Below, piece after piece: positions 20,421 to 62,615 of a DNA stretch of 64,000 bases (position 1 is its first letter; each line of letters begins with the position of its first letter). The stretch spans positions 3,424,001 to 3,488,000 of the forward strand of contig OY970296.1 in the NCBI GenBank assembly GCA_963716175.1. The letters are read 5' to 3'. The translations under genes and the position numbers were made by a program. The notes under the pieces are model-generated. The model ran no database searches. It saw only the letters and a program-made list of their open reading frames with translations, and had not been told where the DNA came from. Source of the stretch: an uncultured Armatimonadetes bacterium. Its GTDB lineage: Bacteria; Armatimonadota; Hebobacteria; Hebobacterales; Hebobacteraceae.

Positions 20421-21172
20421 TGGAGGTCATCCCTGCCATTGACCTGCGGGGCGGGAGATGCGTGCGGCTGGTGCAGGGGGACTATAATCGCGAGACCGTA
20501 TTCAGTGATGACCCTGCGGCGATGGCCAGGCATTGGGAGGAGCAAGGCGCGCGCCGGCTCCACATCGTGGATCTGGATGGCGCGCGGCAGGGTGAGCCGC
20601 GGAACCTGGAGGCGGTGGAGCAGATCGCGCGGGCGGTGAGCATCCCGGTGCAGCTTGGCGGCGGGATGCGAGATGAGGCGACCGCGCGCCGGGCGTTGGC
20701 GCTGGGCGTGGAGCGCGTGATCATCGGCACCGCGGCCCTCGACCGCACCGCGGCGCGGCGGATGATCGAGGTGCTGGGCGACGCCGTGGTGGCCGGGATA
20801 GATGCGCGGGAGGGCCGAGTGGCAGTGCGAGGATGGTTGGAGACAAGCGAGGTCACGGCGGTCGCGCTGGCGCGCGAGCTGACGGCCCTGGGAGTGCGCT
20901 GGATCGTGTTCACCGACATCGGCCGGGACGGGGTGCTGGAGGGGCCGAACGTGTCGGCCTTGCGGGAGATGGTGGAGAGCGTGACTGCCCGCGTGATCGC
21001 CTCTGGCGGCATCAGCAGCGTGGAGGATGTGAGAGCGGTGCGAGACGCGGGCGCGGCCGGGGCCATCATCGGCACCGCGCTCTACACCGGCCGCTTGCGC
21101 CTGAAAGAGGCGATGGAGGCGGTGGCTAGGCCCTTCAGGCCGCCATCCCGGCCCGCCGCCGGTGGGACCTAG
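20417..21172 (+). CDS. hisA: ProFAR isomerase (C-terminus extended by inserted hairpin element)
   Basis: [36 protein letters not shown]. Confidence 0.95.
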
Positions 21173-21175
21173 GGA
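21123..21175 (+). mobile_element. 53-nt double TA-bulged hairpin insertion (copy B)
   Basis: TGGC-TA-GGCC..GGCC-GCCA + TCCC-GG..CC-TA-GGGA; removing it restores GGAGG-CGGG-ATG and a hisA stop overlapping hisF. Confidence 0.7.
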
Positions 21176-21176
21176 G

Positions 21177-21965
21177 ATGCTAGCCAAGCGGATCATCTGC
21201 TGCCTGGACGTGGACCGAGGACGAGTGGTGAAGTGCATCAAGTTCCTCGACCCGCGGGACGCGGGCGACCCGGTGGAGATGGCGACCCGGTACAATGACG
21301 AGGGCGCGGATGAGGTGACCTTCCTGGACATCTCCGCTTCTCACGAGGGCCGGCAGACCATGATCGAGGTCGCCTCCCGCACCGCCGAACAGGTCTTCAT
21401 CCCCTTCACCGTGGGCGGGGGCATTCGGACGGTAGATGATTTCCGTGCCGTGCTCAGGACGGGCGCGGACAAGGTCGGGGTGAACACAGCCGCGATCAAG
21501 CGGCCCGAGCTGATCACGGAGGCCGCCGAGCGCTTCGGCGCGCAGTGCGTGGTGGTCTCCATTGATGCCAAGAGGCGGAGCGACGCGCCGGCCAGAAGCC
21601 CGCGGTGGGAGTGCTACGTGAACGGAGGCCGCACGCCGACGGGAGTGGACGCACTGGAGTGGGCGATCAGAGTTGAGGAACTGGGCGCGGGCGAGATTCT
21701 GCTGAACAGCATTGACGCCGACGGCACCATGCAGGGCTACGATATCGAGCTGTGCCGCACTATCGCGGATGCGGTGCGCATCCCCGTGATCGCCTCCGGT
21801 GGCGCCGGCACCCCGGAGCACATCTATCAGGCGCTCACCGAAGGGAGATGCGAAGCGGCCCTGATCGCCAGCATCGCTCACTATTCCACCCACCCCATCG
21901 CCGAGATCAAGCACTACCTGGCGGAGCGGGGGGTGCCGGTGAGGCCGATCGCGCAGGCCGCGTGA
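21177..21965 (+). CDS. hisF: Imidazole glycerol phosphate synthase cyclase subunit
   Basis: [39 protein letters not shown]. Confidence 0.95.
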
Positions 21966-59536: not shown

Positions 59537-60234
59537 CCACACCCGAGCAGCCATCGCATATGGAGATCCAGAGCAAGCTGCGCGAGCTGTTGGGGCGCGC
59601 TACCCTGGCCCGCACGCGGCGGCAATGGGAGCAAGCGCTCAAGCTGGTGCAGGAGGCGATCGCGCTCGATGAGAGCAGCGCCGAGGCGCATGAGCTGCAG
59701 GGCGATCTGCTGCTGGAGCTGAAGCGAGGCGCGGAAGCCATGGGGAGCTTCCGCCGCGCCCGGGAGCTGCGGCCCAGCCGCGCCCTGCTGGAGGAAAAGA
59801 TCGCCCGCGCCGCGCTGCAGCAGGCGGCCCGGCAGCAGCGCATCGAGCTCTCTCAGGCCATCCTGGAAGGACGGGTCAAGCCCGCGTCAAAACGCAGCCC
59901 GGGCTACGCGGCGGTGCTGTCACTCATGTTGCCCGGCCTGGGCCAGTTCTACAATGGTGAGGTGGTGAAAGGGCTGGTCATGCTCACGGCCTACGTATTC
60001 CTGCTCGCCCTCGCCCTGCTGGCCGTGCTGCGCGGGATCGCCACCAGCCCCTCGGCGGCCGGGGGCGGCCTGTTCGGACAGGAGATAAACGTGGGCGCCA
60101 TCTTCTCGGGTCTCTCGTCCGGAGGCACCACGCTGGTCAGCGTTCTGCTGGTGGTGCTCTGGCTCTACGGGATTGGCGACGCGGCCTGGCGCGCCAGCAA
60201 GACTCTGACCTCGGATGAGACCGGCCTGGTGTGA
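59533..60234 (+). CDS. TPR-containing membrane protein
   Basis: N-terminal TPR-like helices; LSLMLPGLGQFYNG then TMs. Confidence 0.7.
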   Translation: MTTPEQPSHMEIQSKLRELLGRATLARTRRQWEQALKLVQEAIALDESSAEAHELQGDLLLELKRGAEAMGSFRRARELRPSRALLEEKIARAALQQAARQQRIELSQAILEGRVKPASKRSPGYAAVLSLMLPGLGQFYNGEVVKGLVMLTAYVFLLALALLAVLRGIATSPSAAGGGLFGQEINVGAIFSGLSSGGTTLVSVLLVVLWLYGIGDAAWRASKTLTSDETGLV

Positions 60235-60244
60235 GGTGGGAGAG

Positions 60245-60868
60245 ATGAGCGAGGCGATGGATGAGCTGCGGGAAGTGCCTCTGGGCAAAGCAGTCATTCT
60301 GCCGGAGCCGCGCGTGAGAGGGACGATGTCAGTGGAGGAAGCGATCCAGCGCCGACGCAGCACGCGCGGCTTCACCTCCGATCCGCTCGACCTGGCTGCT
60401 ATCTCTCAGCTCCTGTGGTCAGCCCAGGGTCTCACCTCGCCCGAGGGGCTGAGGGCTGCGCCCTCGGCCGGCGCACGCTATCCGCTGGAGGTGTATCTGG
60501 CGTGCGCGGCCGGGCTGTTTCGCTATCAGGGTCGCGATCACTCTCTGTTGAAGGTGCGGGGGGCCGATCTGCGCGGTCAGCTTGCGGAGGCCGCACTGGG
60601 CCAGAGCTTCGTGGCGGAGGCCCCGATCGCGCTGGTGTTCGTGGCCATCTACGAGCGCACTACCAGCCGTTATCGCGACCGAGGCATTCGCTACGTGCAT
60701 ATTGACGTGGGGCATGCCGCGGAGAACGTGCATTTGCAGGCCGAGGCCCTGGGCCTGGGGTCCTGTGCGGTGGGGGCGTTTGACGATGCCGCGGCGGCCC
60801 GGGTCCTGCACTTGCCAGACGACCAGAAGCCGCTCTACCTCATCCCGGTAGGCCGGCCGAGCGGTTGA
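60245..60868 (+). CDS. SagB/ThcOx-type nitroreductase family protein
   Basis: RRSTR, LSQLLW-like segment, APSAGARYPLE, GHAAENV. Confidence 0.88.
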   Translation: MSEAMDELREVPLGKAVILPEPRVRGTMSVEEAIQRRRSTRGFTSDPLDLAAISQLLWSAQGLTSPEGLRAAPSAGARYPLEVYLACAAGLFRYQGRDHSLLKVRGADLRGQLAEAALGQSFVAEAPIALVFVAIYERTTSRYRDRGIRYVHIDVGHAAENVHLQAEALGLGSCAVGAFDDAAAARVLHLPDDQKPLYLIPVGRPSG

Positions 60869-60956
60869 CCGGCCCTCCCTGCAAAGCTACAATTAGGGGC
60901 GGCGCCCCTGTGGCCAAGTGGATAAGGCGCAGGCCTCCGGAGCCTGAACCGCAGGT
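60861..60956 (+). repeat. 96-bp direct repeat copy 1 (promoter + tRNA-Arg 5' part)
   Basis: Matches 61317-61412 with one mismatch; contains TTGACC-17-TACAAT. Confidence 0.95.
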
Positions 60957-61034
60957 GGCTAGGCCCGAAGGGCCGCCATGGCGGTCCCCGCGAGCGGGGA
61001 CCTAGCCATTCGCATCCCGCCAGGGGGCCAGCCA
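60904..61034 (+). pseudogene. tRNA-Arg(CCG) copy interrupted in the T-arm, with divergent 3' end
   Basis: First 52 nt identical to intact tRNA; 53-nt insertion after GCAGG; then TTCGCATCCCGCCAGGGGGCCAGCCA vs TTCGAATCCTGCCAGGGGTACCA. Confidence 0.85.
60956..61008 (+). mobile_element. 53-nt double TA-bulged hairpin insertion (copy A)
   Basis: TGGC-TA-GGCCC-GAA-GGGCC-GCCA + TGGC-GGTCCCCGC-GA-GCGGGGACC-TA-GCCA. Confidence 0.8.
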
Positions 61035-61047
61035 CGTGGGGGGAAGC

Positions 61048-61296
61048 GTGTACTACGTCTACATTCTGCGGAGTGTGCCGCGAGGAACACTGTACGTAGG
61101 CACAACGCAGGATGTGGACAAGCGCCTTCGCGATCACAATGCGGGCCGAAGCAAGTCTACCCGCCCCCACCGGCCCTTCGAGCTGGTGCACGTGGAGCAG
61201 TTCCCGAGCCTAGGTGAGGCGCGGCGGCGGGAGTGGCAGCTCAAGTGCAGCCCCGCTGGAGGCAAGGAGAAGAAGCAGCTGGTCGGGGGCGAGTAG
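61048..61296 (+). CDS. Small stand-alone GIY-YIG nuclease
   Basis: YYVYILRS..LYVGTT..RLRDHN.G...T...RPFELV..E....AR.RE..LK; Tyr/Arg/His/Glu catalytic pattern intact. Confidence 0.92.
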   Translation: MYYVYILRSVPRGTLYVGTTQDVDKRLRDHNAGRSKSTRPHRPFELVHVEQFPSLGEARRREWQLKCSPAGGKEKKQLVGGE

Positions 61297-61359
61297 ACCC
61301 ATTCTATGTCTGAGCCGCGGTTGACCGGCCCTCCTTGCAAAGCTACAATTAGGGGCGGC

Positions 61360-61434
61360 GCCCCTGTGGCCAAGTGGATAAGGCGCAGGCCTCCGGAGCC
61401 TGAACCGCAGGTTCGAATCCTGCCAGGGGTACCA
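61360..61434 (+). tRNA. tRNA-Arg(CCG)
   Basis: GCCCCTG/CAGGGGT acceptor, CAGGC-CTCCGGA-GCCTG anticodon arm, TTCGAAT, encoded CCA. Confidence 0.96.
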
Positions 61435-61574
61435 CAGAGTGCGAATGCGATAGGCCTGGTGCATGTCGGAGGGGGAGGGAGGACCCTCCCCCTCTCGAAT
61501 CTCACCCCTCCTCTTCGCCTGCTGCGATTGGTGTATAATAGGGAGCGGTTCTCTCTGTTGTCAGGAGCGTCCAG

Positions 61575-62427
61575 ATGAACTCTGTCAAGACTATCGGCCT
61601 GATGATCGGGCTGACGGCATTGCTGGTGCTGATCGGCGGCTATCTGGGCGGGCGCCACGGGATGATCGTGGCCCTCGCCTTCGCCACCATCATGAACCTG
61701 TTCAGCTACTGGTTCTCAGATAAGATCGTGCTCGCCATGTACCGCGCGCAGGAGGTAGATGAGGCCACCGCGCCGACGCTTTTCCGCGTAGTGCGTGGAT
61801 TGGCCGAGAAGGCCGGGATGCCCATGCCGCGGGTCTACATCATCCCGCAGGCCCAGCCCAATGCGTTCGCTACCGGGCGCGACCCCAAGCACGCGGCGGT
61901 GGCGGCCACTCAGGGGTTACTGCAGTTGATGGATGAACAGGAGTTGGAGGGCGTGATCGCCCACGAGCTTTCGCACGTCAGGAACCGGGATATCCTCATC
62001 GGCACCATCGCCGCCACCCTCGCCGGGGCGGTGATGATCCTGGCCCGGATGGCCCAGTTCGCCGCCATCTTCGGGGGCGGAGGCCGGGACCGGGACGAGG
62101 AGCGCGGCGGCGGACTCGGCCTGATCTTCGTCGCCATCTTCGGCGCCATCGCGGCCGCCCTGATCCAGCTCGCCATCTCGCGGGTCGCGGGAATACCAGG
62201 CCGACGCCTCGGGGGCCAGGCTTTCCGGCGATCCGCACGGGCTGGCGCGGGCGCCATCGGCCCTGGAGCGGGCCACTCAGCGCGTACCCATGGAGGCCAA
62301 TCCCGCCACTTCTCACATGTTCATCGTGAACCCCTTCGGCGGCGGGGGATTGGTGCGCCTGTTCAGCACTCACCCGCCCATAGAAGATCGCATCGCCCGT
62401 CTGGAGCGGATGGCGGCCGATACCTGA
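61575..62427 (+). CDS. htpX: Zinc metalloprotease HtpX, frameshifted near 62182
   Basis: [13 protein letters not shown]; removing one G gives ISRSREYQAD...[12 protein letters not shown]. Confidence 0.92.
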
Positions 62428-62615
62428 GTCCGGCGTGCGTGGTCGTTCCCGCCGGGTCTTGAGCATCCGATTCCGCTAGCGGGCCTGGCGCTGCTCTGCC
62501 TGCCAGATTTGGTTGACCGCGATCTATTCGCGGCCTTCCTCCATGTCAATGGACGCGAGGTGACGGGAGAGACAGTCTCTGCTTCGAGGGTAATGTCGGA
62601 TCGGTTTACTGTGAA

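Follow-up and report, generated by a model that had tools for sequence, protein, structure and literature searches.

What placed a broken tRNA gene, a very small nuclease gene and a working copy of the same tRNA gene in one row on a bacterial chromosome? The question arises from a locus in a 64,000-nt stretch of DNA (positions 3,424,001 to 3,488,000 of contig OY970296.1, from an uncultured member of the Armatimonadota), here called the window, in which an interrupted tRNA-Arg(CCG) copy, a gene for an 82-amino-acid GIY-YIG nuclease and an intact tRNA-Arg(CCG) follow one another on the + strand. With a probability of roughly 0.6, in our estimate, a minimal nuclease cassette resides at this locus, one copy of a kind that makes its home in tRNA and transfer-messenger RNA (tmRNA) genes by a mechanism that we infer. 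Such a cassette would consist of a single-domain GIY-YIG gene of about 82 codons and of the UPF0213/SLX1-like type, a GC-rich hairpin module set into a tRNA copy at the T-stem/T-loop junction (between positions 53 and 54), and a duplicated part of the host tRNA gene, so arranged that the host always keeps one working tRNA. Within this bacterial family, the cassette would sit at tRNA-Arg(CCG), with a hairpin module that we call H.

The genome under study (G000; relatives carry similar designations) is a single contig of 4.56 Mb with 58 tRNA genes. A repeat search of the window found a direct repeat of 96 nt, at 60861-60956 and 61317-61412, whose two copies are 99% identical and spaced 456 nt apart; the sole mismatch (C at 60879, T at 61335) falls in a promoter spacer. 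By its length and identity, a 96-nt repeat with one mismatch cannot have arisen by chance. Each copy holds the final 8 nt of a nitroreductase gene, a promoter-like site of the form TTGACC-17-TACAAT and nucleotides 1-53 of tRNA-Arg(CCG). The promoter-like sites lie at 60865-60893 (P1, 10 of 12 matches) and 61321-61349 (P2, with the same hexamers), and shuffled sequences contained a mean of 0.1 such sites. P1 and P2 are the only promoter-like sites on the + strand of 60700-61700, where no terminator-like site was found, and expression of the nuclease from a tRNA promoter is plausible for that reason. P1 is the likely promoter of both the interrupted tRNA copy and the nuclease gene, which is probably transcribed from it, so that the takeover of the tRNA promoter proposed in an earlier, sequence-only reading of this locus is a plausible one.

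The first tRNA copy (60904-61030) has an intact 5' part, a hairpin insert and a decayed 3' end. It is not called by ARAGORN, and over 60904-61028 it scores 25.0 bits against the Rfam tRNA model, under the gathering score of 29; in that alignment 59 nt replace the T-loop, and the acceptor pair 1-72 and the T-stem are broken. The insert, H (60956-61008), is 53 nt long and reads T-GGCTAGG, arm 1, CCGCCATGGCGG, arm 2 and CCTAGCC-A. It lies exactly between standard tRNA positions 53 and 54, since a complete 7-nt T-loop comes after it. Over its 23 nt, the tRNA 3' end that follows (61008-61030) departs from the intact copy by 3 substitutions and 1 deletion. The second tRNA copy (61360-61434) is called by ARAGORN and scores 65.8 bits in Rfam. 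No other tRNA-Arg(CCG) occurs in the set of 58 tRNA genes, which also includes a tRNA-Arg(TCG). Between the two copies lie the nuclease gene (61048-61296) and, including its stop codon, a degenerate relic of a second hairpin/T-loop junction (61291-61312). Read as a cassette, the locus would run from the native promoter through the H-interrupted tRNA copy, the nuclease gene and the second-junction relic to the duplicated promoter with the intact tRNA.

The structural claims of the sequence-only reading held up in the repeat search, direct reading, Rfam and Pfam: the 96-nt duplication with one mismatch at a spacing of 456 nt, the 53-nt hairpin directly before the T-loop, the divergent 3' end and the intact GIY-YIG gene of about 82 codons. 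It had also reported no integrase or transposase, and none was found among five neighbouring open reading frames (ORFs) scanned with Pfam (TPR, nitroreductase, GIY-YIG, M48 and metallophosphatase), a set that does not cover all small ORFs. A permissive Rfam scan of 60500-61800 returned tRNA matches only and no family for the hairpin, and the RNA folding of 60904-61036 is unremarkable (z = -1.96). A tRNA intron of the group I or archaeal type was rejected as a candidate; only tRNA was found in the Rfam scan, the pairs of the 3' half are decayed, and the insert is a genomic repeat.

Could the duplication be a mis-join of repeats made during assembly? The check drew on short-read contigs of four runs only, and none of those listed spans the whole stretch or the junction between the 5' part of the first tRNA and the hairpin; a probable 1-nt assembly indel also lies nearby, at 62182. 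The repeat copies, however, have distinct flanks on both sides and differ in one base, and a 1240-nt contig of run X1 covers 60955-61385, which takes in the hairpin, the gene and the start of repeat copy 2, with 6 other letters and one gap. Spanning sequence, which the earlier reading had called for, therefore extends from the hairpin to the second copy but not across the first tRNA-hairpin junction. Moreover, the independent genomes G011 and G002 show a pair of interrupted and intact tRNA-Arg copies, which makes an artefact unlikely, and we regard it as the least probable of all the explanations considered here. The X1 contig reads C at 61335, which would make the repeat copies identical there. 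A joint between 60948 and 61383 was seen in a single 56-nt contig, out of register with the 456-nt repeat, and was not used.

The nuclease ORF runs from a GTG at 61048, just 3' of a G-rich, Shine-Dalgarno-like run, to a TAG at 61296 (82 amino acids); an alternative GTG at 61036 would give 86 amino acids. Its product matches PF01541 with 60.2 bits against a cut-off of 22.6 (E 2.5e-16). Y9, Y20, G22, R30, H34 and E66 are invariant across 22 aligned homologs, the window protein included. We take the catalytic signature of GIY-YIG enzymes to be two Tyr, an Arg, a His or Asn and a Glu, and by comparison with it the catalytic residues of the window nuclease appear intact. The best sequence matches among solved structures are the UPF0213 proteins BH0048 (1zg2, E 2.1e-20 against the family profile) and EF2693 (1ywl, E 4.7e-18), both over the full profile, and the SLX1 nuclease domain (E 1e-7 to 3e-10). 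The PDB titles of the UPF0213 entries give no function, and SLX1 itself carries further domains and has a partner, SLX4. The window protein has a single domain and no extra one, is closest to the UPF0213 structures and fits the UPF0213/SLX1-like single-domain branch; a scan of NCBIfam gave weak sub-threshold matches only, such as one to a group I intron endonuclease with 20 bits against a cut-off of 56. In the X1 contig a G-run at 61285, four codons ahead of the nuclease stop, has one G fewer, and an ORF with that version would extend to the TGA in the -35 box of the second promoter.

Is the neighbourhood of this gene and a tRNA an accident of one genome? We examined 43 loci of the nuclease family, comprising 3 in G000, 28 in relatives (family matches occur in 26 of 40 related genomes) and 12 in other phyla, the last located by a search with the window protein alone. 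The other-phylum loci include metagenome-assembled genomes (MAGs) of Deltaproteobacteria, Verrucomicrobiota, Saccharibacteria, Bacteroidota and Alphaproteobacteria. A tRNA or tmRNA gene lies on the same strand at most 350 nt away at 32 of the 43 loci, upstream of the nuclease gene in 29 and downstream in 3, an association far beyond chance. At 15 of these 32 loci an exact partial copy (at least 13 nt) of the same tRNA lies across the gene, and in 7 loci this copy begins in the T-loop, at tRNA position 53-57 or the equivalent. All three members in G000 follow or precede a tRNA; besides the member at tRNA-Arg, one lies 187 nt after tRNA-Thr(TGT) and one 221 nt after tRNA-Ala(CGC), on the same strand.

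The usual layout, exemplified by the tRNA-Thr locus of G000, consists of an intact tRNA, a short spacer, the nuclease ORF, a copy of the 5' strand of the T-stem that overlaps the ORF end, a hairpin and an exact repeat of the tRNA 3' end. The order seen in the window, with an interrupted copy ahead of the gene and the intact tRNA after it, is in the minority; the tRNA is downstream in 3 of 32 loci. Thus, the expectation that homologs of the nuclease would be found at tRNA genes was borne out, but the interrupted-first order of the window is not the rule. The minority order recurs at tRNA-Asn (G008 and G012), with the gene preceded there by a full pseudo-tRNA whose three loops all contain hairpins, and at one tRNA-Ser of a Bacteroidota MAG. 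In the spacer between tRNA-Thr and the nuclease gene of G000 (L002) there are three direct repeats of a GACCCCGAGC...GTCGAGGGGCCA motif, of which one copy is found at the matching place in G013 (L018).

A gene enclosed by copies of a tRNA end calls to mind integrase-driven islands, which target the 3' part of tRNA or tmRNA genes, restore the tRNA and leave a partial copy at the far end. On that view the cassette might be all that is left of a larger element that had integrated at a tRNA gene and later lost its integrase. In the common layout the gene does lie between direct repeats of the tRNA 3' end, and G000 has other small cassettes bounded by tRNA copies. Where flanks were read, though, only one small gene lies between the tRNA and its partial copy, no integrase is present among the scanned neighbours, and the breakpoints carry an inserted hairpin. 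The long repeat of the window is the 5' part of the tRNA with its promoter. The element further departs from such islands in having one ORF and no recombinase, in the small size of 0.3-0.5 kb, in the hairpin at its breakpoint and in the occurrence of 5'-part duplications as well, and we consider descent from an eroded island very unlikely. The other cassettes in G000, bounded by partial copies and about 0.7-1.0 kb long as read, are at tRNA-Phe (981231-981306), tRNA-Ala(TGC) (2327715-2327790) and tRNA-Arg(TCT) (1772341-1772417); no GIY-YIG gene or integrase was found in the stretches read of these three, and one holds two unnamed ORFs.

The hairpin supplies a second line of evidence, and what counts most in it is that H is found at the 53/54 junction, always in the same polarity, in leftover copies of three tRNAs, namely Arg, His and Thr. 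In G010 it occupies the junction twice, and the nuclease ORF stops at the TAG within GGCTAGG; in G007 the first half of H follows the tRNA-Arg nuclease gene at 53/54, after which the contig degrades. In G011, H interrupts a tRNA-Arg copy that precedes the intact tRNA and the gene by 40 nt; in G002, the copy that contains H is a full tRNA-Arg, lies 2.8 kb away from its intact counterpart and has no adjoining nuclease gene. A gene-less H unit lies behind a tRNA-Thr 3' end at the start of a G007 contig. H is located 40 nt upstream of the nuclease gene in the window and directly 3' of the gene in G010 and G007. When 401 genomes of the phylum were searched for H followed by a T-loop, T-loop-like matches came only from G000 (6), G010 (2), G002, G011 and G007; ten other single matches had unrelated sequence after the motif, at a frequency similar to that of the control. 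Between G000 and G011, arm 1 of H is identical, and arm 2 differs by a compensatory change from C-G to T-A and by one loop base, a difference that suggests descent from a common source and preservation of the structure.

Other lineages of the nuclease family have a different small GC hairpin at the equivalent junction, a TGCGCC...GGCGCA type at tRNA-Ala, tRNA-Ser and tRNA-Asn and a TCCGCC...GGCGGA type in gene-less tandem units behind tRNA-Arg of G003. A junction hairpin is therefore part of the design, and H is the version that belongs to this bacterial family. The G003 locus (L060, G003:C4) holds at least two tandem gene-less units of 56 nt, each a small hairpin plus a tRNA 3' end, which continue to the contig end, and a contig of run X3 holds a similar unit. 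In G000, an intact tRNA-His(GTG) is followed by five near-identical, gene-less tandem units of 162 nt (G000:C1:1774620-1775500), each made of a spacer, the T-stem 5' strand, H and the tRNA 3' end; translated in the frame that includes the TAA of H, the last part of the spacer looks like the C-terminal end of the nucleases found at tRNA-Arg (GGK...GG and stop), as if the ORF had been internally deleted.

H is not confined to tRNA genes. A strict pattern finds 13 copies in G000 (0 with a reversed control) and 9, 6, 3, 2, 1 and 1 copies in 6 of the 40 relatives; a loose pattern gives 51 matches in G000, of which about 3 appear spurious, and the family total is put at about 40-48 copies. One of these copies lies elsewhere in the window, at 21124-21185, and longer nested forms of about 72 nt occur. 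The hairpin thus stands as a part of the cassette by virtue of its place at the 53/54 junction, but it is not private to the cassette as the earlier reading implied. H has constant ends and a constant centre, and its arms are hypervariable (67 distinct sequences among 80 arms), yet 70 of the 80 pair end to end. Stems of at least 4 pairs are found in 62% of the arms and in 5% of shuffled arms. H is a compound element with three stems. Roughly 11 copies lie in the loop of GTAG-headed repetitive extragenic palindromic (REP) hairpins, 10 of them directly after the 5' strand of the REP stem in one polarity; we do not count these as independent insertions, because they may be copies of one composite repeat. 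The flanks of H are mostly T...A with no clear target-site duplication, and no transposase is linked to it. With many dispersed copies and conserved ends, H has the character of an element of the REP type or of a miniature inverted-repeat transposable element (MITE). The sequence GGCTAGCC, sought as a possible empty pre-insertion target of H, has 57 copies in ordinary contexts.

This dispersal allows an explanation in which the parts of the locus have nothing to do with one another. The promoter and tRNA would have been duplicated through homologous recombination with related incoming DNA, a palindromic, MITE- or REP-like H with a preference for hairpin loops would have landed by itself in the spare T-arm, and the GIY-YIG gene would be an old neighbour. 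The presence of H in REP loops, at many other sites and in genomes without a nuclease of the tRNA-Arg clade agrees with such a history, as does a similar duplication around unrelated cargo in G013. It does not account for the presence of H or another hairpin at position 53/54 of leftover Arg, His, Thr, Asn, Ala and Ser tRNA copies beside the gene family in several genomes, for the G010 and G007 nuclease ORFs that end within H and the retention of that stop codon in the window, or for the tie between gene and tRNA at 32 of 43 loci, which is far above chance. We judge a series of unconnected events improbable.

Does the cassette come and go? The five closest homologs of the window nuclease (62-75% identity) all follow tRNA-Arg(CCG), and the next homolog is at 48%. 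They comprise two copies in G010 (68% and 65%) and one each in G011 (71%), G007 (62%) and G008 (75% over 40 amino acids at a contig end). In G001 the site is an empty allele, with the TPR and nitroreductase genes, the promoter, a single tRNA-Arg, 186 nt and the M48 gene, and no cassette. G014 and G013, which have the genus label of G010, and G005, which has that of G011, lack a nuclease gene at tRNA-Arg(CCG); G014 and G005 have a single tRNA and no cassette, and G001 and G014 share the neighbouring genes of the window. The homologous site is thus polymorphic, with the cassette absent from G001, G014, G005 and G013 and present in G010, G011, G007 and G008. An empty single-tRNA allele, which the sequence-only reading proposed to look for in relatives, is therefore found in G001, G014 and G005. 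Precise loss of the cassette should be easy because direct repeats bound it.

What do the repeats reveal about the history of this particular copy? In an alignment of gene ends, the TAG of the window nuclease is positionally homologous to the TAG in the GGCTAGG of the hairpin that follows the G010 and G007 genes. The relic after the window gene opens with about 10 nt like the start of H (identical at 7 of 10), after which it resembles a T-loop only weakly; the alignment is weak after the first 10 nt. The relic and the shared stop codon indicate that a hairpin/T-loop junction formerly lay downstream of the window gene too, and since a remnant of that second junction remains, the window unit is better described as a rearranged older cassette than as a clean insertion of 0.45 kb. 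The idea of a selfish or homing-like unit of about 0.45 kb that targets tRNA T-arms is thus supported in that the family is tied to tRNA and tmRNA genes, has T-loop breakpoints and leaves a rebuilt tRNA, but not in its simple form as a clean insertion.

The two parts of the tRNA have diverged unevenly, at 1 of 96 positions in the 5' repeat and 4 of 23 in the 3' end (Fisher p = 0.0048). Either of two explanations would fit: the segment of hairpin plus 3' end may be much older than the 96-nt duplication, or gene conversion may homogenise the long segment and spare the 23-nt piece. Formally, the locus equals the empty site with a 456-nt segment at 53/54, which is equivalent to a single crossover within the 96-nt segment. 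Several routes fit, among them such a crossover and a unit deletion plus duplication from a tandem like that of G010.

These observations can be brought together in a mechanism. The nuclease would make its cut at the hairpin or T-arm or close beside it, perhaps in single-stranded DNA (ssDNA) in the manner of the Ssn nucleases discussed below, and recombinational repair between tRNA copies would then carry the cassette into empty alleles, that is, by homing. The same repair could yield local duplications, precise losses and tandem arrays, of which examples are present in G010, in G003 and at tRNA-His of G000. It would also keep the long 5' tRNA segments identical, whereas the 23-nt 3' remnant would be too short for conversion and hence decay.

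Several points weigh against a mobile cassette of this kind. Each mechanistic step, whether transcription, cleavage or homing, is one that we infer. The identities among the tRNA-Arg nucleases (62-75%) fall within the range of the flanking proteins (46-80%; TPR 46-65%, nitroreductase 56-65%, M48 69-80%), so that old vertical descent with repeated loss would suffice and recent mobility is not required. The rebuilt tRNA is the same as the empty target, and a simple double-strand homing enzyme would therefore cut its own allele unless the flank or hairpin is needed. Most copies of H in G000 are far from any GIY-YIG gene, and H is present in genomes where no nuclease of the tRNA-Arg clade was found (6 copies in G018 and 9 in G012). 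Eleven of the 43 family loci have no nearby tRNA; 2 of these are at a contig end and 4 are the weakest matches. In G013 the gene end, promoter and tRNA-Arg are duplicated around an unrelated 2.7-kb insert with two genes on the opposite strand, which means that such duplications need no GIY-YIG gene in cis. Two of the three nuclease-less tRNA cassettes of G000 hold gene pairs that resemble HicB/HicA by eye, and the first (left) 810 nt of the bridging X1 contig do not align to the window. At the G013 locus (L067, G013:C129:1300-5100), a decayed tRNA-Arg lies next to the nitroreductase gene and the intact copy 2.7 kb downstream, each with the gene end and promoter; the interior holds a TPR gene and a gene for a 680-amino-acid membrane protein.

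A related possibility is that the nuclease and its junction hairpin form a transposase-free mobile element that targets DNA hairpins in general. The hairpin module would be what the nuclease recognises, structured ssDNA would be cut at the 5' stem-loop junction, and host repair would place copies of the module, with or without the gene, at that point, chiefly in the universally conserved T-arms of tRNA and tmRNA genes and here in REP stems too. Such an element would explain the tie to tRNA and tmRNA genes across phyla, the gene-less tandem arrays and the spread of H to about 45 sites all at once; we hold this to be possible but doubtful. H has a likeness to the REP/RAYT (REP-associated tyrosine transposase) and IS200/IS605 systems in being a small, dispersed palindromic repeat and in its location at stem-loop junctions of REPs and T-arms with a preferred polarity. 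It differs from them in that no HUH transposase is linked to it and that the embedded copies may derive from one composite repeat.

The nearest precedent for a small nuclease paired with a hairpin is provided by the Ssn GIY-YIG nucleases, single-domain enzymes that cut ssDNA beside hairpin repeats that flank their own genes and are dispersed in the genome (Chenal et al., Nat Commun 2025, PMC11893778). The authors of that paper note a resemblance to insertion sequences (IS) and REP/RAYT systems, and the likeness to the window lies in a GIY-YIG protein of about 90 amino acids without extra domain and a gene flanked by a dispersed hairpin repeat with polarity (PMC11893778). By this analogy the window nuclease may work like an Ssn/hairpin pair. 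There are differences: the consensus of the SRM repeat was not found here, H is a compound of three stems and not a single hairpin, and tRNA is mentioned 0 times in the main text of PMC11893778. The published degenerate SRM pattern had 0 matches in window positions 60000-62500 and one, chance-like, near 16 family loci, and is unenriched in G000 (60 matches against 50-68 in shuffled sequences). The likeness is one of size, domain and hairpin; the published SRM motif is not shared, and we do not file the window nuclease as an Ssn member.

The Ssn precedent raises the question of whether the nuclease serves its host. A domesticated, Ssn-like enzyme could act on dispersed H, limiting recombination with incoming ssDNA or shaping the repeats, and the tRNA site would then be a borrowed strong, constitutive promoter and the duplications side effects. 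The gene and its catalytic residues have been kept across five genera at identities like those of its neighbours, and H, with its roughly 40-48 dispersed copies and arms that vary yet pair, parallels the NTS/SRM repeats as described in PMC11893778. A role of this kind is difficult to reconcile with the variable presence of the cassette within genera (G010 versus G013 and G014; G011 versus G005), with a family that visits many tRNAs and tmRNA and in every case carries copies of the one visited, or with the formation of tandem arrays, and the SRM motif is absent near the genes and not enriched in the genome. We consider domestication rather unlikely.

For the preferred reading, a mobile cassette of tRNA and tmRNA genes, two other published systems are instructive. 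In fungal mitochondria, mobile ORFs (mORFs; Allomyces atp6 and Glomus atp6, atp9, cox2 and nad3) combine an endonuclease ORF with a replacement gene end, and they resemble the window in that an ORF is located in an essential gene whose displaced native end stays behind as a remnant, the atp9 case being a GIY-YIG enzyme (PMC3630166). The hosts of mORFs are organellar protein-coding genes, the ORFs are larger and mostly LAGLIDADG, and the available text of that source describes no hairpin module (PMC3630166). In the window system, in contrast, a bacterial tRNA gene serves as host, and the duplication may affect either of its ends. Like an mORF, the window ORF is flanked by functional and remnant partial copies of its host gene, here of the 5' part. 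SegB of phages T4 and T6 is a larger protein with a DNA-binding part. It is a free-standing GIY-YIG homing endonuclease encoded among tRNA genes, cuts DNA that contains tRNA genes (PMC2330249, PMC13096335) and, through its breaks and homologous recombination, brings about tandem amplification of the tRNA-segB segment, in trans too (PMC13096335). Unlike the window nuclease, it is a phage protein and lies between complete tRNA genes, and no hairpin module is reported in the accessible text of these papers. Ssn, the mORFs and SegB are the closest published analogues, and none is a match. Full-text searches, with most subscription journals and supplements outside their scope, turned up no paper on small GIY-YIG cassettes located in tRNA genes of bacterial chromosomes. 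What the window adds is a hairpin, H, that is compound and dispersed, together with evidence that a single hairpin occupies the 53/54 junction in three different tRNAs.

If the cassette is what we propose, the tRNA genes of many bacteria host a very small selfish element, made of a nuclease of 80 amino acids, a hairpin and a borrowed piece of tRNA, that spreads with no recombinase and keeps its host gene alive by duplication. It would be a bacterial counterpart, in a non-coding gene, to the mobile ORFs of fungal mitochondria, and would connect tRNA genes with the newly described Ssn nuclease/hairpin pairs. Pseudo-tRNA copies, tandem arrays of tRNA ends and local tRNA duplications, all of which confuse annotation, would gain an explanation as well. 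The enzymes may supply compact nucleases specific for DNA structure or ssDNA. The window itself is one rearranged example of such a cassette.

The genes on either side of the locus are on the + strand as well. The upstream nitroreductase-family gene (60215-60868 in the ORF list; PF00881, E 1.5e-32) has its TGA stop within the -35 hexamer of P1, and its orthologs occupy the equivalent position in G001, G010 and G014. Downstream, an M48 (HtpX-like) peptidase gene (61575-62462; PF01435) is the same neighbour as in the empty-site genome G001. It has an apparent frame shift near 62182 (window 62170-62200), beyond which the conserved C-terminal part goes on in the +1 frame; since the X1 and X3 contigs lack one base there, the shift is probably an assembly indel or a strain difference. 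Across G000 as a whole, extra partial copies were found no more than 1.5 kb away from 8 of the 58 tRNA genes. Directly upstream of tRNA-Phe at 789636, tRNA-Phe at 981231 and tRNA-Gly(GCC) at 1468501 there are one or two tandem units of about 70 nt, each of which opens with a copy of the first 25 or so nucleotides of the tRNA.

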